DNA from: Callorhinchus milii
Taxonomy: Eukaryota
Direction of reading: 5' to 3'
Length of the DNA stretch: 64,000 nucleotides
NCBI RefSeq assembly: GCF_018977255.1
Contig: NW_024704742.1
Coordinates: 125,366,001-125,430,000, forward strand
Part shown: one piece after another, positions 3,593 to 64,000 of the stretch
Layout of the letters: every line of letters begins with the position of its first letter
Position numbering within the stretch: position 1 is the first letter of the stretch
Made by a program: the position numbers and the translations under genes
Notes under the pieces: generated by a model
What the model was told of the DNA's origin: nothing
The model's input: only the letters and a program-made list of their open reading frames with translations
Database searches by the model: none

Positions 3593-3921
3593 ATAATAAT
3601 AATATTCCTTCCATTTGATATAGCGCTTTTCATGTCGAGAGGACGTCCCAAAGTGCTTCACAGAACACACTGTAAAGTGAATTGACTGTATATTTGTGGG
3701 CGAACGCGGCAGCCAATTGCGCACAGCAATGTCCAATGACAAACAATGACAAACAGTCATAGATTGAAAATGACCAATTTTATTATTGTTTTTGGTTTTG
3801 GAGGGATTATTATTAGGCGTGTGGAATAAGGAAACTTGCCCAAGGTTTCGCCCTGCTGGGAATTGAACTCAGGTCTCTCGCTTGCAAAGCGAGTGCTCTA
3901 ACCACTGAGCTACAGGACTCC
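3593..3921 (-). mobile_element. Young tRNA-Ala-derived SINE, full length (SINE2-1_CM-like)
   Basis: ggagtcctgtagctcagtggttagagcactcgctttgcaagcgag head with A/B boxes, conserved body, L2-like tail with (ATT)n. Confidence 0.92.
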
Positions 3922-7217: not shown

Positions 7218-7581
7218 TTATAATAATAATAATCTTTGCATTTGATATAATAATAATAAATAATCATTGCATTTCATATAGCGCTTTCACATCTGCTAGA
7301 CATCTCAAAGCGCTTCACAGAATATACTCTAAAGTGAATTGACTGTATATTTGTGGGAGAAACCTGGCAGCCAATTGCACACAGCAGTGTCCCTCCCACA
7401 AACAGTCGTGGATTGAATGACAAATTTATTATTGTTCTTTTTCAAGGAATTAAGGTAAATAAGGTAAGTAAACAGAGGCATGTGGAGTAAGGAAACTTGC
7501 CCAACATTTTGCCCTGCTGGAAATCGAACCAGGTCTCTCGCTTGAGAAGTGAGTTCTCTAACCACTGAGCTACAGGACTCC
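7218..7581 (-). mobile_element. Young tRNA-Ala SINE, full length
   Basis: Same head, body and tail as 3593-3921. Confidence 0.92.
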
Positions 7582-12984: not shown

Positions 12985-13303
12985 GGAGTCCTGTAGCTCA
13001 GTGGTTAGAGTACTCGCCTTGCAAGCGAGACACCTGGGTTCAATTCCAGGCAGAGCGAAACTTTGGGCAAGTTTCCTTACTCCACACGTCTAATAATAAT
13101 CCCTCCAAAAAAAAACAATAATAAATTGGTCATTTTCAATCCACGACTGTTTGTGGGACACTGCTGTGCATAATTGGCTGCCACATTTCACCCACAAATA
13201 TACAGTCAATTCACTTTACAGCATATTCTGTGAAGGGCTTTGAAATGTCTAGAAGATGTGAAAAGCGCTATATCAAATGCAAGGATTATTATTATTATTA
13301 TTA
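12985..13303 (+). mobile_element. Young tRNA-Ala SINE, full length (short variant)
   Basis: ggagtcctgtagctcagtggttagag...gcaaggattattattattatt. Confidence 0.93.
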
Positions 13304-16429: not shown

Positions 16430-16750
16430 ATAATAATAATAATCCTTGCATTTGATATAGCGCTTTTCACGTCTTCTAGATGTCTCAAAGCGCTTCACAG
16501 AATATGCTGTAAAGTGAATTGATCGTATATTTGTGGGTGAAATGCAGCAGCCAATTGCGCATAGCAGTGTCCCACAAACAGTCGTGGATTGAAAATGACC
16601 AATTTATTATTGTTTTGTTTTTGGAGGGATTATTATTAGGCGTGTGGAGTAAGGAAACTTGCCCAAGGTTTCGCCCTGCCTGGAATTGAACCCAGGTGTC
16701 TCGTTTGCAAGGCAAGTGCTCTAACCACTGAGCTACAGCTGCAGGATTCC
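16430..16750 (-). mobile_element. Young tRNA-Ala SINE, full length
   Basis: Close reverse complement of 12985-13303. Confidence 0.92.
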
Positions 16751-22574: not shown

Positions 22575-24278
22575 GGAGATAATCAAATAGAATATGGAAA
22601 GTACAGAAGAACTGAAAAAGGAAATAAGAGGGGCAAAGAGATTGTATGAGAACCGATTACCGGGTAACATAAAAGGGAACACTAAGGTAATTTATAAGCA
22701 TAGAAAGAATAAAAGCTTAGTCAAAGGTAGAATGGGGTCAATTAGGGACCAAAGAGGAAATCTTCTTGTGGAGGCAGAGGGCATGGCTGACATACTGAAT
22801 GAGTACTTTTCATCTGCCTTCACAAAAGAAGAGGATGCAGCCAATGCCACAGTATCGTAGGAGAGGGTAGAGAAATTGGATAAGATAAGAATAAACGGAG
22901 AGGAGGTACTAAAATGGTTAATGGTGCTCAAGGTAGATAAGTCACCTGATCCGGACGGGATGCATCCAAGGTTACTGAGAGAAGTAACGGTGGAAGTAGC
23001 AGAGGCTCAGAAGGAGGCCATTCAGTCCATCGTGTCTATGCTAGCTCTTTTAAAAGAGCTTTACAAATCAATCCCACTCCCCCACTCTCTCCCAATGGCC
23101 CTGCAAACTTATCCACCCCACATAAAAGACTTGTAAGCAAAATAGAAGTCCACGGTATTAAAGAGACAGTGGTAGTTTGCTTACAGAACTGGCTGGGAGA
23201 CAGAAAGTAGAGAGTAGTGAATGGTTGTTTTTGTGACTGGAGGGAAGTGTGCAGTCGTGTCCTACAGGGGTTGGTATTGGGACCACTGCTCTTTTTGATC
23301 TATATAAATGACCTGGACTTGGGTATCAGGAGTACAATAATTGGCTTTATAATAATACAATCCTATAATCCTTGCATTTGATATAGCACTTTTTCACGTC
23401 TTCTAGACGTCTCAAAGCACTTCAGAATAGACTGTAAAGTGAATTGACTGTATATTTGTGGGTGAAACGCGGCAGCCAATTGTGCACAGCAGTGTCCCAC
23501 AAACAGTTGTGGATTGAAGTGACCAATTTTTTTATTGCTTTTTTTTGAAGGATTGTTATCAGGCATGTGGAGTAAGGAAACTTGCCCAAAGTTTCGCCCT
23601 GCCGGGAACCAAACCCAGGTTTCTCGCTTGCGGGGCGAATGCTCTAACCACTGAGCTACAGGACTCCTATAAATAGGGCATCGAATACAAAAGTCAGGAA
23701 GTTATGATGAACCTTTATAAAACACTGGTTAGGCCTCAGCTAGAGTACTGTGTTCAGTTCTGGGCACCACACTTTAGGAAGGATGTCAAGGCATTGGAGA
23801 GGGTACAAGGAAATGTACCAGGATGAGGGGCTTCAATTATCAGGAGAGGCTAGAGAAGCTAGGATTATTCTCTTTGGAACAGAGAAGTTAAGAGCAGACT
23901 TACTAGAAGTTTTCAAAGCTTATGAGGGGATTTGATAGGGTGAACAAGGAGAAACTATTTCCACTGGCGGTCGATCGGTAACCCGAGGGCACCGATTTAA
24001 AATAGTTGTTAAAAGAAACAGAGGTAAGGTGAGGAGAATTTTTTTCACACAGCGAGTAGTTTGGATGTGGAATGTCTTGCTTTCAAGTGTGGTGGAAGCC
24101 GATTCAATAACAACTTTTAAAAGAGAAGTAGATAATTATTTGGGAAGGACAGGTTTGCAGGGCTCTGGGGAGAGAGCGGGGGAGTGGGATTGATTTGGAT
24201 AGCTCTTTTCAAAGAGCCGGGACAGACGTGATGGTCCGAATGGCCTCCTTCTGTGCTGTATAATTCTATGATTCTATA
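22575..24278 (+). mobile_element. 5'-truncated CR1 LINE (decayed ORF2 RT to 3' tail)
   Basis: [39 protein letters not shown] motifs; ttctatgattctat tail; internal deletions, SINE insertion, inverted 3' piece. Confidence 0.93.
23348..23667 (-). mobile_element. Young tRNA-Ala SINE nested in CR1
   Basis: Full head and tail interrupting the CR1 RT. Confidence 0.92.
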
Positions 24279-26785: not shown

Positions 26786-29675
26786 AATACCTACATCTGA
26801 CTATGTCCATATATTGGAACTTATCCTCTGACCTCTTTCCCTTCTCCAGTACTGACACTGATGTGCACAGAACACTAGTAATAAAATAAGTACATGCAAA
26901 GGGAGTCCTTGATAATGTGATTTATTTCCTGGCATTGGTTTGATTCAGAAAGTGGCCCTGCATACACCTGATTGATATTTATTTGAACTACCTCATTGGT
27001 CATAAATTATTCAATGGAAAAGGAGATTTTGTTTTGTAAATTCATGCAAAATTAGATCAAGTGTCTTTGATACGAACCTCCTCAATCATCAAGTGTCACC
27101 ATAGGCACTTTATGAAGTGAGCAATGATATCCTAAAGTCACTTACATACAATCCAGTAGACTGACCCAACCAATTTACTATGACTGTTCTTTTCATACCT
27201 ATTTTCATTCCTCAATATTTTTCTGTTTCATTTTTTGAGTTCATCAAGATGAGAGATGTCAAAGGTATGGGGTGGAAAATATTTCCACCATTTGATGTAT
27301 GTATTTTCATCCTATCATTAAAGTAGTGTATAGCAAGGTAACTATTTTTGTGCTCAGCCAGCTCCAGAAACCCCACTTTACTGGTAAAATAAACAGTAAA
27401 GTTATATGAAAGATAAAAGCTTGGAGGTTATGGGGATAAAGTGGGGTAGTGGGAATGAATGAACACTTTGCTCTGAGAGCTGGTGCAGACTTGATGGGCT
27501 GAATGGCTTACTTTTGTGCAGTAAAAGTTTGTGATTCTATGGAAGTCGGACATTCAAGCACACAGCAGAGAAATGCTGCCCTGCATCTGGAATTATACGG
27601 TTAATGGCAGGTTTAATTTATGGATAAATGAGATGCTAATGATTGCAGATTTCGAGGAGCTCTTTTATTGTTTGAGGGTAGCCAGAGCCAGGTCAACAGA
27701 AGATGGAATCTCTTTAAGCAGGCTCTGATTAAAAGGTCCTTAACATTGCCTCTTTACCTCGAATGACGTTCAATGTCAGATTGTAATTATTTGTACAACA
27801 TTTAAGGATATACACTGTATTACTGTATGAATAACTTCACATTTCCCCACATTATATTCCATCTGCCACCTTCTTGCCCACTCACCTAGCCTGTCTATTT
27901 CCCTTTGCATTCTTCGTGTGTCATCCTTACTCTCCTACCTATTTTCGTATCGTCCGCAAATGTAGATATATTAAGTTCTATTTCTTCATCTACATCATTG
28001 ATATAGACTATAAATAATTGGGGCGCAAACACTGATCCTTGTAGCACTCCACTGGTCGCATCCTGCCAATCTGAAAAGGATCCGTTTATCCCTACTCTCT
28101 GTTTTCTTCCTGTTCGCCACTCTCCAATCCATGCTAATGTATTGCCTTTAATTCCATGGGCTCTAATCTTATGCAACAGCCTTTTATGTGGCACCTTGTC
28201 AAATGCCTTCTGGAAATCTAAATACATCACATCTACTGGTTTCCCCCCATCTAACCTGCTAGTTACATCCTCAAAAAACTATAAGATTTGTTAAACATGA
28301 TTTCCCTTTCATAAAGCCATGCTGACTCTGCCTAATCATGTTATGATTTTCTAAGTATCCCACAATGACGTCCCTAATTAAGGTCAATTGAATTTTCCCT
28401 ACCATCGATGTCAGACTAACTGGTCTATAATTCCCCATTTTTTGTCTCCCACCCTTTTTAAATATCGGCGTTACATTTGCGACCTTCCAATCACTGGGAA
28501 CAATTCCAGAATCCAGGGAATTTTGGAAGATCAAAAACAAAGCATTCACTATCTCTGCAGCCACCTCTTTTAAAACTCTAGGATACAGGCCATCAGGTCC
28601 AGGGGATTTATCAGTTATTAATCCTATCAATTTCTCTAGTACTATTGCTTTACTGATGTTCATTTCTTTAAGTTCCTCAATAAACTTAGCCTCCGGGTTA
28701 TCTCTATTTTTGGTAAGTTTTCAGTGAATGAGTAATGTTTACTCTCATATTCCATTTTCTCCCTCTTAATCAGTTTCTTGGTTTTCCTTTGCTGGTTTCC
28801 AAAGCCCTCTATACCCTCATGTTTACTGCTCTTTTTGGCAATATTATAGGCCTCCTCTTTTAATTGTATACTTTCCCTAACTTCTCTAGTTAGCCAAGGT
28901 TGAACCACTTTTCCTGTGGTATTTTATTTTTCAAGGGAATATGTGATCCCTGGGAAGTATGCATTATATCTTTAAACGTTTGCCATTGCTGGTCTACCAT
29001 CATATTTTTTAATCTAATTTTCCGGTCTATTTTAGCTAAATCTTCTCTTGTACCTGCAAAGTTGGCTTTATTTTGATTTAAGACCTTTGCTTCGGATTCA
29101 TTTATATCACTCTCTAATTTAATGCTAAATTCCATCATGTTATGGTCACTCTGCCCTAGAAGAGCCTTAACTTCCAGATTTCTGATTAGACCTATTTCAT
29201 TACACAAAACAAGATCTAGGATAGCCTGTTCCCTGGTTGGTTCCTCAGCATATTGTTCTAGAAAACTCTCTCTAATGTATTCTATAAACTCATCTTCTAA
29301 TTTACTTCTGTCAATTTGGTTTTCTCAGTCTATATGAAGATTGAAATCACCCACTATTAGTGTATGCTCCTTGCTACATGCTCCTCCAATTTCCTGATTA
29401 ACACCCTGCCCATACTGTAACTGCTGTTTGGGAGTCTATAAACTACTCCCACTACAACAACAACAACAAGATTGCATTTATAGTTTTTCTGCCCATTGTT
29501 GTTTATTATCTCCAACCATACTGAATCTACATCCCGATTTTCTGATTTAAAATCCTTCCTCTCTACTGTTTTTATCTTACCCTTTATTCGTGCATTCAGA
29601 TATAGCACCTTAATGTTGACCTCTTACTATTTCCCCTACTTGTTAATGCCTTTTTTCCTTTGTTGAGCTTTTACA

Positions 29676-29990
29676 GGAGTCCTGTAGCTCAGTGGTTAGA
29701 GCACTCGCTTTGCAAGTTAGAGACCTGAGTTCAATTCCAGGCTGGGCGAAACCTTGGGCAAGTTTCCTTACTCCACATGCCTGATAATAATCCTTCCAAA
29801 ACAATAATAAATTGGTTATTTTCAATCCATGACTGTTTGTGGGACATTACTGTGCGCAGTTGGCTGCCGTGTTCACCCACAAATATACAGTCAATTCACT
29901 TTACAGTATATTCTGTGAAGCGCTTTGGGACGTCTAGAAGACGTGAAAAGCGCTATATCAAATGCAAGGATTATTCTTCTTATTATTATT
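29676..29990 (+). mobile_element. Young tRNA-Ala SINE nested in CR1 near the ORF1-ORF2 junction
   Basis: Full head, body and tail. Confidence 0.93.
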
Positions 29991-30109
29991 TTGTCCCTTC
30001 TTGACACACTGTTCTTTATCTCCCAAGTCGCTACTCTGCTCTACAGCCTTGACTGTTCCTTGCAATGTCGGGCTACATTTAACTGTGGCTGTAACCCTCC
30101 CTCCTTCCC

Positions 30110-31061
30110 TTAATAGTTTTAAAGCTCTGCCTATCTCCCTATTTAATCGTTTTGCCAGAACATTGGTCCCAGCCCGGTTAAGGTAGAGCCCATCTCAATG
30201 GAACAGCTCCCTTTTCCCCTAATACTTGTGCCAGTGGCCCATAAAATGAAACCCCTGCCTCCCGCACCATTCTTTCAGCCATGTGTTTAACTCTTTAATT
30301 TGTTTGTCCTTGAACCAATTTGCGTGTGGCTCAGGTAGTAATCCGGTAATAATCACCTTGGAAGTTCTTCCTTTTAATTTCATTCCCAGTTCATTGAACT
30401 CACTTCTCAGGTCGTTACTACTAGTCCTACCTAAATTGTTGGTGCCTATGTGGATCACCACAATTGGATCATCCCCTTCCTGCTTCAAATTCTTCTCCAG
30501 CCCTGAAGAGATGTCCTTAACCCTGGTGCCAGGAAGGCAACAGAGCCTTCGTGACTCCTGGTTGTGGCTGCAGAGAAGAGTGTCTCTCCACCCGACTGTC
30601 TCGTCTCCTATCACAGCTACATTCCGTTTTACTCCCCCCATTTGAGTGGCCTCCTGTATAGAAGTCCTGGGGTCAGTTTGCCCATCCTCCTCCTTACAGA
30701 CTTCCTCGTCTACACAGGTTGCAAGTACCTCATACCTGTTGGACAAGGTTAAGGCCTGAGGCTTCTCCACCACTCTCTCTGGGGTCCCCTTACCTGCCTG
30801 ATTTTCAGTCACACTGTCCTGTCCCTGACTAGTAGCAGGATCTATACACTGACTGAGCCTCAGGGGAGTGTTTGTCTCCAGGATGAAACTATCCTGGAAG
30901 CTCTCACCCTCCCTAATGCTGCGCAATGTCTGCACCTCGGATTCCAGCTCAGCTACTCTAAGCTGGAGCTTTCTCAGTTGCAGACATTTGCTGCAGATGT
31001 AGTCGCCCGGGCTCAGGCTTTCCTCCATCAACTCCCATGTACTGCAGTCATCGCACAACAT
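30110..31061 (-). pseudogene. CR1 ORF1 (CxxC...CxxC Zn-finger, coiled coil, SGNH/GDSL-like esterase), inactivated
   Basis: 280-aa open stretch CDDC...ICSKCLQL, VIGDET, VIHIGTNN; stops at 30219-30221 and 30195-30197 precede DGLYLNRAG. Confidence 0.88.
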
Positions 31062-31149
31062 CTGTCATGCCAATCTCTCCTCTCTCTTTCACTCCGGATT
31101 ATGGTTTTTATTTAAGTTTTTTTTAGTTTTTTTTCTGGTTCTGTCTTTT

Positions 31150-34011: not shown

Positions 34012-35305
34012 CAACAACAACAACAACAACTGGGATTTATATAGCGCCCTCCATGCCAGACTACGTCTCAGAGCGCTTCACAATAACGGATCCTGGGGCC
34101 GAGCCGGGGGATAGGGAGGAAGGTGTCCAAAGGCGCGGTCGAAGAGAAAGGTCTTCAGCAGGGACCTGAAAATAGGAAGAGAGGGAGCGAGGCAAAGGGA
34201 GTGAGGAAGGGAATTCCAGAGCCTCGGGGCATAGTGGCTGAAGACATGGCCATCGAGGGTGGAGCGGAGGACTCGGGGGACGAGGAGGAGGCCAGACTGG
34301 AGGAACAAAGGCAAGGGGTACTGTTTTGAGGAGAGAGGAGGTCAGAGAGGTAGGGGGTGCAGAGGAGTGGAGAGATTTGAATACAAGGGTGAGGATCTTG
34401 AAGTCGATCCTCTCTGGGACAGGCAGCCAGTGCAGTCTGACAAGGACTGATGATCAGGGAGCGGAGTTTGGTGCGGGTGAGAATGCGGGCAGTAGAGTTT
34501 TGAATGATCTGGATTTTATGGATGGTAGTGGTTGGGAGACCGGCGAGGAAGGCGTTAGAGTAGTCCAGCCGAGAGGTGACAAGGGCATGGACTAGGGTTT
34601 CGCGGCTTTCGGAGAGAGGTATTGACGGAGACAGGCGATGCATTGGAGGTGGAAGAAGGCGGTGCTGGTGAGGGACCAGATGTGGGGGAGGAAGGATAAT
34701 TGGGGGTCGAACCTGACGCCAAGGTTGCATACGGATTCGCAGAGTTTCAGGGGCAGGTCGGGGAGGTGGAGGAGGTGAGAGCCATGAGATTTTAAACGTT
34801 GACGAGAGCCAAAGAGTATGGCTTCCGTCTTGTCAACGTTCAGCTGAAGGAAATTTGCACTCATCCAGCCCCTGAGATCTGACAGGCAGGCTGACAGAAC
34901 ATCGGGGGACGGGGGGTCGTAAAGAGAGGTGGGAAAATAGAGTTGGGTGTTATTCGCACACATGTCTGCGGATGACATCCCCAAGAGGGAGCATATAGAT
35001 CAGAAAGAGGAGGGGGCCAAGGATGGATTTTTGGGGTACACCGCAGGTAACCGGGTGAGAGCGGGAGGAGAAGCCATTTGTACAAATGTACTGCTGGCAG
35101 TTTGTGAGATAGGACTCGAACCAAGTGAGTGTGGTCCCACTGAGGTGGATGACGGAGAAAAGGCGGTGGAGGAGGATGGCACAATCGACTGTGTTGAACG
35201 CCATGGAGAGGTCCAGGAGGACAAGGAGGCAGAGGGAGCCCTGGTCACAGATAGAGAGGATGTCGTTTGTGACTTTCCCAAGCGCAGTCTCTGTACTGTG
35301 GGTCA
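34012..35305 (-). mobile_element. L2 LINE (subfamily B), RT to 3' tail, decayed
   Basis: AFNTVD, CGVPQKSILGPLLFLIYMLPLG, NFLQLNVDKTE, VTSRLDYSNAFLAGLP motifs in shifting frames. Confidence 0.95.
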
Positions 35306-36889
35306 GACACCTGAATTACCAAAAAAAATTCTTCTGTTAATCTTGAACTTGCTGACTCGCCTGCTGTTGGAAAACGTAAAGCTGTGGATTTTACAAAACA
35401 GTGTGACTTTTTTTCTGTCAACTAGTTATACTTTTAAATTACGAAAAACAGGCGCACTTGTAAGTAACTTCAAACACAGGTGGTGTGGGGACACTTGCTA
35501 TTTCATAAAACTATCCTAAAACTGACAGGTAGATTTCAGAAAAGTGAATCGAGGTTTTCATCTTCCAGTGCTTCAGATGTCAAAAGTTGAAAGTCTGGCT
35601 AAAGATACAATTCAAGAGAATTCAAACAAATCAGAGTTCATAACAATAATTCATTACAATTTCAAATAAAGTATAATGAAAAGAACAAATAAGTCAATAG
35701 ATAATTGGTCGGGGAAAAATTCTGTCTTAAAGAGTGCTGTCTTCATAGAACACTAAAGTGTTTCTTAAAAGATTCCAGCGTTGGAAAATATGGTGTTTCC
35801 TCAATAGTTGGTAATTATCACATCATATCTGTTAAAAAACACTTCATTTTTTTTATCCCTGGATGTGCTATCACATCAGATCTATTACGAAATATCGCAC
35901 TTTTCACCCACTGTTTTTGCAAACCTCCATTATAAACTTTTGATTAATCGCAGCACTTCTGTGTGGATTAACATTATATGTGGTGCTTTGGCCTCTTCTG
36001 GTGTTTGAAAGAAAATGAGGTTTGCCAAACGTTTTGTCAATGAAGACAGTGGCCCTTTTGTTATGTTATGGTTTCATCCAGTCATCTGGTGCAACCTGAA
36101 GTTCACCAGTGCAGCTGAAAGAAGCTCACTGACAATTTGGGTGGTATCAGGTGTCAATTCTGAATGCTGTGAATAATTGTAAACTGAGGAACCATTTGCA
36201 CAACAGCTGATGATGGTGTCTTTTGACCACCACCATCACAGACAGCAGTCCCCAGTCATTAATGAAAGAGATGACTATATCGGAGCAACACATTGAGCCA
36301 CCTTGCTGTGTACTCAGCACTAAATTATTCTTATCCAATAAGTGCTGACATGTGTGGGTACTTCAGTGTGCTTCTTTATTTCACCATGTATCAAATGCTT
36401 GCCATTTACGAGCAAGTTGCCTCTTTCTCTATATAAATCTTTAGTTTGCTTCAGAGAATTTGGCTTTGTGAAAGGCATTGCAATGCACTGCACTACAGCA
36501 GAACACTGCCACATAATAATAATAATCCTTACACTTGATATAGCGAGATATCTTCGAGGCGTCTCAAAGCGTTTTACAGAACATACTGTAAAGTAAGTTG
36601 ACTGTATGTTTTGTGGGTGAAGCATGGCAGCCAATTGCGCACAGCAGTGTCCCACAAACAGTCATCCAGTCTGCATATAGCTGCATTGAGAAAAAACATG
36701 ATTTTAGAAGGAAACTGATTGAAAATTAAACACGATCCACTGTAATTATGGATGTTCATTACAGCAACAACAAAGTTACATTTTTATAATGCCTTTCACG
36801 TCAGGGGGACACCCCAAGGCGCTGGAATTACTGGGCAGTACTGTGAGAACTCCATTGGTTTAGGTTAAAAAGGTATATTATTGTATGTC

Positions 36890-37270: not shown

Positions 37271-37734
37271 AAATGTGTTCGACACGTTTCTCATGATAAG
37301 TAATATGTTAGTGATTTATAAAGGAATTAATATTCTGACAGCGCAAAAGGATTTCAATCTAAATAACTTTCAATGATATATTCATAACATGTCCTTTACG
37401 AGTGGAGTTTTAATCTTGAGACGTGTACAAACTTTTGTTATTGTGAAATGCTTTGAAATCATTGTTGTCATGCATTCTCTTGTGGCCATACCATTGCCAA
37501 TCCCAATGCACCAAGGATGGATATGTAAGAGAGCTTGAAACTGGTTAGTCAATGGATTTATTGACCTAGTTCAAAACCACACAGTTTTCAATAAAGCATC
37601 GCTGTCTGGAAGTGCTAACGTTTTGGAAGATGTATTATACTGAAACCAGTTATGGTGCTGTGTTGTTAGTTACTTCACAACTATGATCATCTATCTCTGA
37701 ATTGTTACAATGTTTTGTTTCTCAAAAACGACAG

Positions 37735-38755
37735 TATCTATATGCTCCCTCTTGGTGATATCATCCGCAGACATGGAGTCAACTTCCACATATATGAGGA
37801 TGACGTCGAACTCTACCTCTCTGCCTCCACCCTTGCCTCCAGGACCACTGCTGTGCTGACAGAATGTCTGTCGGACATCAAGTCCTGGATGAGAGCTAAC
37901 TTTCTTCAGTTGAATGTCAACAAGACCGAGGCTCTCCTGATTGGCTCCGGTCAGTGCCTCCTCACCTCAGGCGCTGACAGCATCACCATCCGTTGTTACA
38001 TCCTCCACCTTGCTAAGCCAATCTTGGGATCTTGTTTGACCCTCAACTTTCCTTTCTGCCCCACATCTGCGCCATGACTCGTTCTACCTTCCCCACCTCC
38101 GCAACGTCGCCCGGCTCCGACACTGTCTCACACTGCAAGCTGCCAAAACCCTCATACACACTTTCATTACATCGAGGCTCAACTATGCAAACTCACTGCT
38201 TATCGGCCTCCCCAACTCTTCCCTCCACAGGCTGCAGATCAACCAGAAATCTGCAGCCCGTGTCCTCTCCCGCGCCAGGCTCCGTGACCCTATCAACCCC
38301 ATCCTTGCCCAACTCCACTGGTTTCCCATCATACAGAGGATACAGTTCAAGATCCTGGTCCTCACCTTCAAAGCCCTCCACGGTCTTGCTCCCCCCTACC
38401 TCTCCGACCTCCTAACCCCCTACCACCCTGTTCACTCCCTCCGCTCAGCGGGCTCCGGCCTGCTTCACGTCCCCTGCCTCGCTCGCCCCACTATCAGCAG
38501 GCGGGCCTTCCACCACTCTATACCCACCCTCTGGAACTCCAACCCTCAGTCCCTCCGTCTCGCCCCCTCCCTCGCCACCTTCAAGACCCATCTTAAGACC
38601 CTCCTCTTCGACCATGCTTTCAATCTCTCTATTTCCCACCCTGCCCTCCACCTTCCTCGACCCTCAGCCCGGGTCTGAAACTCTGTCTGTCCAGCGCCTT
38701 GGGTCGTCCTCCCGACGTGATAGGCGCTATACAAATGTAATTTTTTTGTTATTGT
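37735..38755 (+). mobile_element. L2 LINE (subfamily A), RT to 3' tail
   Basis: IYMLPLGDIIRRHGVNFHIYEDDVELY...WMRANFLQLNVNKTE. Confidence 0.95.
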
Positions 38756-42751: not shown

Positions 42752-43102
42752 GGAGTTATAGCTCAGTGGTTAGAGCACTCACCTCCCAAGCGAGAGATCT
42801 GGGTTTGATTTCCAGCTGGGTGAAACCTTGGACAAGTTTCCTTACTCCATACACCTGTTTATCTAGCAGTAAGTAGGAACCTGGCTATTAGTGGATTGGC
42901 AGATCACTTTTCCAGGGTTAATAATGCCTTAAAAAAAAATTGGTCATTCAATCTACAGCTGTTTGTGGGACACTGCTGTGCGCAATTGGCTGCTGCGTTT
43001 CACCCACAAAATATACAGTCAGTTCATTTTATGGTATATTCTGTGAAGAGTTTTGAGATGTCTCGAAGATGTGTTAAGGGGCTATAGCAAATGCAAGGAT
43101 TA
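42752..43102 (+). mobile_element. Young SINE, long variant
   Basis: tRNA-like head plus ctgtttatctagcagtaagtaggaacc segment. Confidence 0.9.
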
Positions 43103-44165: not shown

Positions 44166-44520
44166 GGAGACCTGTAGCTCAGTGGTTAGAGCACTCACCT
44201 CACAAGAGAGAGACCTAGGTTTGATTCCCGGCAGGGTGAAATATTGGGCAAGTTTCCTTACTCCACATGCCTCTGTTTACCTTGCAGAAAGTAGGAACCC
44301 GGTTGTTAGTTGATTGGTGGATCGATTTTCTGGGGGTAACAATTCCTTTTTTAAAAAATTGGTTACTTCAATCCACGACTGTTTGTGGGACACTGCTGTG
44401 CACAATTGGCTGCCGCGTTTCGCCCACAAAATATACAGTCAATTCATTTCACAGTTAATTTTGTGAAGCACTTTGAGATGTCTCGAAAATTGATAAGAAT
44501 TATTATTATTTATTATTATA
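44166..44520 (+). mobile_element. Young SINE, long variant
   Basis: tRNA-like head plus ctctgtttaccttgcagaaagtaggaacccggttgttag segment. Confidence 0.92.
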
Positions 44521-61805: not shown

Positions 61806-62132
61806 GGAGTCCTGTAGCTCAGTGGTTAGAGCACTCGCTTTGCAAGTGAGAGACCTGAGTTCAATTCCAGGCAGGGCGAAACTTGGGCAAGTTTCCTTAC
61901 TCCACACAGAGCCTAATAATAATCCCTCCAAAAACCAAAAACGATAATAAATTGGTCATTTTCAATCTACGACTGTTTGTGGGACATTGCTGTGCGCAAT
62001 TGGCTGCCGCGTTCGCCCACAAATATACAGTCAATTCACTTTACAGTGTGTTCTGTGAAGCGCTTTGGGACGTCCTCCCGACATGAAAAGCGCTATATCA
62101 AATCAAGGATTATTATTATTATATTATTATTA
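61806..62132 (+). mobile_element. Young tRNA-Ala SINE, full length
   Basis: ggagtcctgtagctcagtggttagagcactcgctttgcaag...(ATT)n. Confidence 0.93.
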
Positions 62133-62227
62133 ACATTTTTATACCCTTTAGAATACAGAATACAATGATTCAATGAGATCATCTGTCATATCTTCTCCAA
62201 ATATTTGCAACTCTTGCAATCCCTCCC

Positions 62228-62415
62228 ATAATAATCCCTTCAAAAATAATTATTGGTCACTGCATCCACGGATGTTTGCGGGATACTGCTGTGTGCAAAT
62301 GGCTGACGCGTTTCTGCCACAAAATACACAGTCAATATATTCTGTGAAGCTCTTTGAGACATCTAGAAGATGCGAAAAAGCGCTATATCAAATGCAAAGA
62401 TTATTATTATTATTT
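62228..62415 (+). mobile_element. Headless young SINE
   Basis: SINE body and tail without tRNA head. Confidence 0.82.
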
Positions 62416-62774
62416 TTAGCTGAAATATCTAATGCATTAATTTAATCGTTATTCAATGTACTTTGAATGCAGCACTGGTCCCTCCTGACTCAGGAGTGAT
62501 GTGATCCAACGCATCTGTATTGAATTAACGTTCAAGCACTGAAGCCTCAGCCCAAGGATTCCAGCTGGGACTGGGATTCCCCCGTATAAACATGTAACAC
62601 AGAGGGGCTAGTTTTACCACTTAACGAACAATCCACACAACTTTCATTGGAATTTCGGCTTTGAACAGAGAGGAACAGACTTCATATGACCTTTTTTCAG
62701 CAAGTACCTTAGTTTTGCTTGCTGCAGGATCCATTCATGAGTCATTACAACTAGTAGACTGTTTAAAGGAAAAC

Positions 62775-62952
62775 AAAACACAAAATACTGCAGATGCTGG
62801 AAATCTGAAAATAAAAACAGAAGTAGTTGGGAACACTCAGCAGGTCAGGCCCCAGTTCTGACGAAGGGTCGTGGACCCGAAACGTTGACTCACTTTCCTT
62901 TCTCCATAGATGCTGCCTGACCTGCTGAGTGTTTCCAGCTACATTTTGTTTT
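62775..62952 (+). mobile_element. Short Penelope-like (pLTR-derived) non-autonomous element with inverted terminal segment
   Basis: 15-bp direct repeat tgtttaaaggaaaac at 62760-62774 and 62953-62967; 19-bp perfect inverted repeat 62832-62850 / 62915-62933; hammerhead core inside. Confidence 0.8.
62854..62890 (+). ncRNA. Minimal type-I hammerhead ribozyme motif
   Basis: Stem I agtt/gact; core CUGACGA 62858-62864; stem II GGGUC-gug-GACCC; GAAA 62879-62882; palindromic stem III AACGUU; GUU cleavage triplet ending at 62886. Confidence 0.75.
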
Positions 62953-64000
62953 TGTTTAAAGGAAAACGCCAGGTTGAATGCTGACATTTAGCTAATTAAA
63001 TATGATTTAACCGAAACCTATCACAGAAGCAACAAGAGCTCCCACTCTGAATTGAGTCTGAACAGATCTGTAGCCAAGAAAACTGGACATGAAAATCTCA
63101 TAGTGTAAACACAGTACAGATCCTTTCTCATTCTGAGTTGTGTGCTATGTACAGTATTTTACACGAGGAACGCTTAATAGTAATGCCCCTGCATACATGA
63201 TCTGCACAGTGTGTATCTGGCAAACTCAATTTTAGCAACATAATGAGACACATCACAATTGTGTGGGAATTGACAGACTCATTAATACTTGGTTACATTT
63301 CACCATCCAGTTGTGAATATTCCTTTAACTTGCTCTGAAACTTGACTATGTGATACGAGCAAAAAAAAAAGGGACATGTAAAGTGGACATAAAGAATAAA
63401 ACACAGAATATGGTTCTGGTTGCCTTTGTATTGATTCTGAGAGTGTCAGAAAGGTCCTTGGTCATGCCCTACCAAAGCATACTAATTTGCTAGATCAGGT
63501 CTGTCAGAATATCGACTGGAGCCAAGAAGCTATGGTGGCAGCTTTTGTGCTCTGTGCAGCAGGGAATCCTGTCTGTGAAATAGGATTATCAGGGGGTCAT
63601 GCAGGCAGTCAAAGTGCGTCCATCACTTTCCTTCTGCTAATGCATTGGGGCGGACTCATGTATGTGATTGAGATGTACTAGACAGGAGGCATGCCAGGGA
63701 GGAAATCAAAGACATGCATGGGGAGCCTGATGGGCTACTGTGAGCCATAAATATGCAGTGAGGAGAGTAGGGCCTTCGAACACATGAAATGTGTTTCCCG
63801 GGTCAGTTTCGTACAATATCTTGGATGTGCTAAGTTTATGTTTAATTTAAAGTTGCAAGCTTTGAATGTAGGCGTTCCCTTTTAGTTGTTGAGGAAAGGG
63901 AATTGTGTTTCTGATAAAGGATCTATACTGTTGAATGTAAAATGTTTCCAATTCTTGTTGCTAGAAACATAGACATTTACAGCATACTATTTGACCCATT

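Follow-up and report, generated by a model that had tools for sequence, protein, structure and literature searches.

MITEs and foldback DNA transposons carry terminal inverted repeats at both ends, and in LINE-1 twin priming a 5′ inversion is joined by microhomology within one target-site duplication. In Penelope-like insertions, an inverted, 5′-truncated copy lies beside the unit, and a tail of 30-40 bp is often found at one end only (PMC8557442, available sections). The rotifer examples described in the accessible part of PMC3846280 have an inverted pLTR, a 31-bp tail and duplications of 8-10 bp, and head-to-head inversions are explained there by self-priming on an antisense template. The purified protein of Poseidon from Anolis carolinensis (PAc) cleaves and extends both strands of A+T-rich DNA, uses uncut RNA, is predicted to form a dimer, and begins reverse transcription internally, at two sites on either side of the tail (PMC11167929, available text). 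Minimal-hammerhead motifs have low activity and cleave as dimers, as far as the accessible literature reports; cleavage of such motifs together with the element's protein is described in the same portion of PMC11167929, and one of nine Xenopus dimers was found to cleave (bioRxiv 10.64898/2026.07.22.740005, available text). The sections at hand of that preprint also describe non-LTR retrozyme families in the one chondrichthyan sampled.

The locus described here lies in a stretch of 64,000 nucleotides of Callorhinchus milii DNA, termed the window. We consider it probable that this is a lineage-specific 178-bp insert with a true 15-bp target-site duplication, in which the end module of an abundant, likely Penelope-like family is present twice, once forward and once inverted, and that its fold-back formed during integration and not from a hairpin template. 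The insert consists of a 109-nt forward piece (hammerhead and pLTR end) placed head to head with a 76-nt inverted piece; a 34-nt tail is present only on the inverted piece, the forward piece being without one. The features are as follows, with X5 and X6 denoting sequencing runs of two related organisms.

62760-62774, plus strand: left copy of the target-site duplication, identical to 62953-62967; the X5 and X6 orthologues align up to 62774
62775-62808, minus strand: 34-nt tail at the outer end of the inverted copy, placed by paralogue termini and without a partner in the forward copy
62809-62850, minus strand: left arm, a truncated pLTR end in inverted orientation, placed by alignment to 62915-62957
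62849-62850, no strand: head-to-head junction, a 2-nt microhomology common to both pieces, placed by the arm alignment and by longer paralogues
62852-62858, plus strand: putative initiator-like motif, also readable as splice-acceptor-like, at the family's 5′ hot spot; paralogues start at 62855
62891-62952, plus strand: rest of the forward pLTR piece up to its tail-less terminus; paralogues run past 62939, in the same U-rich stretch
62915-62957, plus strand: right arm, the partner of 62809-62850
62953-62967, plus strand: right copy of the target-site duplication, the first 5 nt of which also match the continuation of the element

Target-site duplication, empty site and age

The initial annotation had reported a perfect 15-bp direct repeat around 178 bp, and a script check bears this out: 62760-62774 and 62953-62967 are identical at 15 of 15 bases, with 178 bp between them. 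Of 300 dinucleotide shuffles of the 64-kb window, 13 also contain an exact 15-mer direct repeat with copies at most 500 bp apart. Paralogues and orthologues were mapped using contigs of four of 24 listed sequencing runs (X1, from the same species; X5 and X6; and X13) against 62440-63340, at 80% likeness. Contig 24 of X6 aligns to 62440-62774 (record positions 135-455) and to 62972-63103 (459-590) with three letters between, and contig 17 of X5 again aligns up to 62774 and resumes at 62972. At this empty site the gap is 197 letters in the window against 3 in the X5 and X6 records, and the insert plus one copy of the duplication amounts to 193. Contigs of both relatives thus hold one copy of the repeat and no insert, and the repeat is therefore a true target-site duplication, as expected of the retro-type insertion that had been proposed. 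Run X13 is compatible with an empty site; its left piece is not among the matches listed.

In the same-species run, contig 8 spans the right junction with no differences across 62910-63340, and contig 1 is identical to the window over 62440-62798, reaching only 24 letters beyond the left junction, which is below the bridging threshold. The duplicated target is 73% A+T, compared with 58-63% in the flanks. The boundary of the element is ambiguous by about 5 nt at the right and by at most 4 nt at the left, because the duplicated target matches the natural continuation of the element there; the 4-5 nt of match to the target at both junctions is A/T-rich and, at a single locus, possibly due to chance. 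Outside the insert, at 63103-63125 of the window, the X6 orthologue has about 0.9 kb of extra sequence (record positions 590 to 1504), which is probably a separate insertion in the X6 organism.

The flanks diverge from those of the empty-site organisms at 11.4% (X6) and 11.6% (X5) of sites. Outside the duplication, 3 of 37 columns (8%, 95% interval 2-22%) and one indel separate the two arms of the insert, and the chance of a perfect 15-mer at this level of divergence is 28%. Judged from these alignments, the insertion is lineage-specific and younger than the split from the X5 and X6 organisms, and a very recent origin is not supported. The earlier description of the insertion as recent is apt relative to the divergence of the flanks, but the arms have already drifted apart. 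In four same-species samples, the word content of the stretch is 0.91-0.94 (0.91-0.93 in runs X2-X4, as a word share only), which suggests that the insertion is not a rare allele in the species.

Fold-back anatomy and the repeat family

The arms at 62809-62850 and 62915-62957 align over 42 columns with four mismatches and one unpaired base, and the longest perfect run is 19. Folding predicts a near-perfect 42-bp duplex for the plus-strand RNA of the arms, and an energy of -85.3 kcal/mol for the whole insert (z = -8.87). All four mismatches (62812/62954, 62820/62946, 62827/62938 and 62831/62934) are G-U pairs in plus-strand RNA, a number too small for significance. The left arm starts 34 nt inside the left end, and the inverted repeats do not lie at both termini as they do in a MITE or foldback transposon. 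The first 76 bp had been read as an inverted copy of the 3′ end of the element; 42 bp of these do pair (19 of them perfectly), but the outer 34 bp (62775-62808) are the tail of the family, as its paralogues reveal. The left arm matches up to 62850 and longer paralogues match from 62849, so that the junction has a 2-nt microhomology. BLASTN found no second copy of the insert in the 64-kb window, and no tandem array.

The family to which the insert belongs is very abundant in cartilaginous fishes. Matching contigs number 12,298 of 6,906,335 in X1, 26,226 of 13,493,220 in X5, 26,408 of 7,114,053 in X6 and 11,000 of 6,348,875 in X13, and the summed depth in X1 is 92,663-573,118 over the insert against 5.75-7.36 over the flanks, a figure that is not a copy number. 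Three Callorhinchus milii UniRef gene models (COG3, a phospholipase and CEP170Bb) were found by protein search to contain antisense translations of the repeat, and the family therefore occurs in cartilaginous fishes; these translations are probably annotation errors or exonised copies. In one Callorhinchus milii gene model the tail, pLTR end and hammerhead stand in a single antisense frame, from which the unit is naturally ordered as hammerhead, pLTR end, tail. Searches of largely open-access papers found no published description of the family in cartilaginous fishes. Of the scans of sequence collections for family copies, one gave four loci in prokaryote genomes, taken as chance owing to their source, another gave one metagenome locus that is unrelated beyond a 22-nt match, and the others gave 0 matches.

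Paralogues end at 62771 (203 contigs in X1) or at 62775 (220 in X5 and 313 in X6), followed by unrelated A-rich DNA, and forward-oriented paralogues extend beyond 62939 into the beginning of the 34-nt tail. Taken together, these ends identify 62775-62808 as a tail that is present only on the inverted piece, and the family has two termini 34 nt apart. At the other end of the unit, the match of longer paralogues to the forward piece begins at 62849 and is preceded by conserved sequence (95 contigs in X1, 211 in X5, 279 in X6 and 104 in X13; agreement 0.59-0.78), so the forward piece was cut from something longer. A second set of 5′ starts piles up at 62855, on the upstream edge of stem I, against unrelated A-rich DNA (143 contigs in X1, 245 in X5 and 319 in X6; agreement 0.34-0.36), a start that is absent from X13 among the six rows listed. 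Loose ends at the predicted ribozyme cut (62887) are likewise absent from the 24 rows listed, out of 967.

Templates in the form of short, non-autonomous, SINE- or retrozyme-like master RNAs, about 140 nt long (hammerhead, pLTR end and tail) and mobilised in trans by a Penelope-like protein, would agree with the many paralogues that start at 62855, and the fold-back would still be made at integration. No ORF was linked to the family by the searches described below, which also favours such masters, and vertebrate non-LTR retrozymes have been proposed as non-autonomous pLTR derivatives (bioRxiv 10.64898/2026.07.22.740005, available text). We nonetheless regard this origin as unlikely, given that the present copy starts 4-6 nt upstream of 62855 and matches the longer copies with conserved upstream sequence, so that its template was longer than the minimal unit. 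For a retrozyme-like master, moreover, the definition includes tandem arrays of at least two hammerhead units, and the 64 kb hold one motif, with neither a tandem array nor a second hammerhead.

More tentatively, and in our view less likely than not, the stubs may not be random truncations: RNA would start from the element's own promoter at the upstream edge of the hammerhead, internal reverse transcription 100-140 nt downstream would produce complete, uncut mini-insertions, and the inverted arm would come from a protein dimer that primes on both strands. The labels initiator-like and splice-acceptor-like for 62852-62858 follow general consensus sequences and are putative. In longer paralogues, a TATA-like octamer lies 20 nt ahead of this motif. 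The same TATA-to-initiator spacing is reported for the rotifer pLTR (PMC3846280, accessible part); the Drosophila promoter, by contrast, is TATA-less and internal. Against a start of transcription here, contig ends are a biased count, the present copy starts 4-6 nt further upstream than 62855, and the same bases are fitted by a splice-acceptor-like reading, with a pyrimidine tract and AG at 62854-62855; in Drosophila virilis, an intron ends at the 5′ side of helix I. Separately, 62889-62912 contains a branch-point-like pentamer, a pyrimidine tract and AG, then ATG directly, which we take to be a putative, textbook-looking splice acceptor. If RNA does start at the edge of the hammerhead, an autonomous Penelope-like element would make SINE-like progeny by the thousand without a non-autonomous master, and this would account for the many solitary minimal hammerheads in animal genomes.

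A fold-back joint between 62854/62855 and 62894 recurs in the paralogues (7 + 6 contigs in X5, 12 + 5 in X6, one each in X1 and 1 + 1 in X13), and the window has a 3-nt microhomology at that joint. Contigs that cover both arms make up 6 of the best 32 of >78,000 pieces, one without gaps and five with 1-17 gap letters, and fold-back paralogues with a similar centre are thus present in all four runs. The best 32 are the longest pieces, a selection that favours similar centres. Rows ending at 62876-62913 were excluded from the fold-back count, because the centre is pseudo-palindromic and plain copies, too, can be aligned over it. Most opposite-strand joints (62809/62810 with 62924-62939, 62848 with 62914 and 62835 with 62924) were rejected as plain copies mapped across the two arms. 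As aligned, the rows that cover both arms would fit a fold-back subfamily as well as repeated independent assembly, and to that extent they count against a fold-back made at integration.

Membership in the Penelope-like class is likely, and rests on four anatomical features and not on a protein. The insert has a head-to-head, inverted, 5′-truncated copy, a one-sided tail of 34 nt, and a target-site duplication in A+T-rich DNA. A GIY-YIG domain was found in 0 of the 145 window frames, and RVT_1 is present in four frames, all at least 24 kb from the insert, which we take to be LINE-like by sequence. Three short-peptide protein searches returned no Penelope ORF: the first gave only the three host gene models with the repeat, another gave none of similar length, and the match in the third was rejected as an unrelated protein, repetitive in sequence and with no credible Pfam family. 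Translated in sense from the ATG at 62910, the sequence has an open frame of 24 codons, which may be the start of the parent ORF, a suggestion supported by no search. That these searches tied no RT or GIY-YIG sequence to the family weighs against the Penelope-based explanation preferred here.

Elsewhere in the window, broken LINE-type ORFs occur at 27895-31064 (minus), 34592-35315 (minus) and 37670-38678 (plus), with RVT_1 in the four frames mentioned above, and are presumably CR1 and L2 elements; a GDSL-like esterase frame lies at 30222-31064. At gathering scores, Rfam reports only nine tRNA matches in the whole window (3848-3919, 7509-7579, 12987-13058, 16676-16738, 23594-23665, 29678-29749, 42759-42815, 44168-44239 and 61808-61879). 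These tRNA-like matches are probably the heads of a tRNA-derived SINE, and a second partial copy of the SINE body is seen at about 62219-62418.

The hammerhead motif and its predicted folding

The conserved core bases of a hammerhead, which the initial annotation had listed as complete, are all present, and the motif fits the minimal-hammerhead consensus as given in the accessible literature, including both the G10.1-C11.1 pair and the single base between positions 9 and 10.1. Its parts, in hammerhead numbering, are as follows.

62854-62890, plus strand: minimal type I hammerhead motif with a predicted cut after U62886, placed by descriptor match and by fit to the published consensus (available text)
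62858-62864, plus strand: core C3-A9 (C3 = 62858, A9 = 62864)
62865, plus strand: extra A between positions 9 and 10.1
62866-62870/62874-62878, plus strand: stem II, five Watson-Crick pairs and a 3-nt loop
62879-62882, plus strand: G12-A15.1
62882-62885, plus strand: palindromic stem III, a 4-nt palindrome
62886, plus strand: N17 = U, with the predicted cut directly after it
62854-62857/62887-62890, plus strand: stem I, four pairs, one of them G-U

The descriptor gives a single match over the two strands of the 64 kb, and among 300 dinucleotide shuffles of the window the strict motif appears in 0 and the loose motif in 16. The loose core pattern by itself shows no enrichment, with 2 matches vs 4.99 expected. 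At E up to 5, Rfam returns two weak hairpin matches and no hammerhead for 62000-64000. Two other copies have an antisense peptide over the motif identical to that of the window, over 15 and 19 residues; these peptides fix C3 (in one copy), G10.1, C11.1, A14, A15.1, 16.2 and U16.1, the other positions being degenerate. One X13 loose-end consensus has G8 changed. There is almost no chance that the hammerhead match and the direct repeat are accidental features of an unrelated foldback or MITE-like DNA element: shuffled sequence does yield the exact 15-mer repeat and the loose motif at the frequencies given above, and Rfam is silent on a hammerhead, but the strict motif never arose by shuffling, the inverted arms are not at both termini, and the empty site together with the recurrence of the motif in other copies largely refutes such a coincidence.

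Stem III is, as had been noted, a palindrome unable to close in the monomer: A15.1 and U16.1 enclose 2 nt only, and closure is possible only between two molecules, where folding gives a weak duplex (-1.7 kcal/mol for 4 bp). The GUU triplet had been cited as a reason for doubting activity, but it is not unusual: the same C-G-U-U ending is found in 15 of the 56 rows of Fig. S3 of PMC4209133 (our own count, in the part of that source available). In the predicted fold of the whole-insert RNA, the arms pair with a probability of 1.0, stem I with 0.01-0.02 and stem II with 0.07, whereas in the forward piece alone stem I reaches 0.17-0.26 and stem II 0.4-0.8, and a helix that runs through the core competes at 0.3-0.5. 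The fold-back hairpin is thus predicted to hide the ribozyme rather than expose it, contrary to the proposal that the RNA would present it in a hairpin loop. Self-cleavage at this locus is unlikely on these predictions, because the copy is solitary, with nothing in tandem, and folding predicts its stems to be disrupted; the hammerhead would be a passenger here. The forward piece spans the predicted cut site, and its template was therefore uncut or re-ligated.

These predictions also bear on the idea of a non-autonomous element that consists of the entire 178-nt fold-back and is transcribed and re-inserted in one piece, its ribozyme lying in a hairpin loop. Its strong hairpin, the 6 of 32 rows that cover both arms (one of them gapless, among the best 32 of >78,000 pieces) and the G-U nature of all four arm mismatches in plus-strand RNA would suit such a unit. 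We nevertheless think it decidedly improbable: five of the six rows need gap letters and the longest pieces favour similar centres, a different junction recurs in the paralogues, the tail is at one end only, and stems I and II are predicted to be disrupted relative to the forward piece. The proposal that a non-autonomous element replicates as a fold-back unit is accordingly not supported.

Integration and comparison with known systems

If the fold-back was made during integration, as we prefer to think, an RT/GIY-YIG protein supplied in trans would nick A+T-rich target DNA on both strands, with 15 nt between the nicks. The 3′ end of the bottom strand would prime cDNA at the tail-less start site, with about 105 nt copied through the uncut hammerhead, and the 3′ end of the top strand would prime at the tail end, with 76 nt copied; the two cDNA ends would then anneal via the 2 nt at 62849-62850, followed by fill-in. 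Double priming of this kind is the simplest account that fits. Its products are seen in the sequence; the enzyme, the double priming and the origin of the template are parts that we infer. Two points run against double priming: the two pieces share about 40 nt of template, which would need two RNAs or strand displacement, and in the available text of PMC11167929 the PAc protein initiates at RNA sites without primer-RNA homology to the target, whereas 4-5 nt match at each junction here.

Instead of priming from the two target strands, the inversion could have arisen when a single cDNA or antisense RNA primed itself (fold-back synthesis), or through a rearrangement or another insertion at a later time. 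The rotifer head-to-head inversions have been explained by self-priming (PMC3846280, accessible part), and the junction dinucleotide is palindromic. However, a single duplication brackets both pieces and the relatives are without both, which argues for one event; the inverted piece has a tail absent from the forward piece and therefore cannot be a copy of it, and the 60-nt unpaired centre is unlike the tip of a self-primed hairpin. We attach very little probability to such an origin.

The locus itself is of little weight, being one among very many stubs of known kind, and this solitary insert is likely a dead, ordinary case of a pattern already described. Its value is that of a clean, dated example, in which the empty site in two relatives fixes the geometry of integration: a 15-nt stagger, start sites 34 nt apart, a 2-nt junction microhomology and an uncut hammerhead. 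The abundance of the family in cartilaginous fishes would provide thousands of junctions for testing how inverted ends form and where the RNA starts.

The insert works like LINE-1 twin priming, but has no poly(A) end, and its inverted piece, unlike that in twin priming, corresponds to the downstream end of the RNA and has about 40 nt in common with the forward piece. With the metazoan Penelope-like minimal hammerheads of PMC4209133 it shares the core, the extra base between 9 and 10.1, the G10.1-C11.1 pair, the palindromic 15.2-16.2, a short stem I and a prevalence of solitary copies; none of the 56 rows of Fig. S3, in the available part of that paper, comes from a cartilaginous fish, unlike the present case. 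Unlike for those elements, no ORF-bearing parent was found for the family here, and its ribozyme is a predicted one. The non-LTR retrozymes (PMC7229834; bioRxiv 10.64898/2026.07.22.740005) resemble the insert in being small, non-coding, Penelope-linked and equipped with a type I hammerhead, but they are tandem arrays, with canonical hammerheads in the accessible text of PMC7229834, while here one minimal motif lies in an inverted, duplication-flanked insert. Endonuclease-positive Penelope-like insertions (PMC3846280, PMC8557442, available sections) are alike in head-to-head inversion, one-sided tail (34 nt here vs 30-40), short duplication and junction microhomology; they differ in that the present insert, of only 178 bp, has no ORF between its repeats, and its duplication, at 15 bp, is longer than the 8-10 bp of the rotifer examples (PMC3846280). 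Although the work on PAc is biochemical, and no fold-back product is described in the text available (PMC11167929), PAc and this family have in common two termini that bound the tail about 100-140 nt downstream of the hammerhead, an A+T-rich target and an uncut template, and the integration geometry fixed by the empty site agrees with the in vitro behaviour of this one purified Penelope-like protein.
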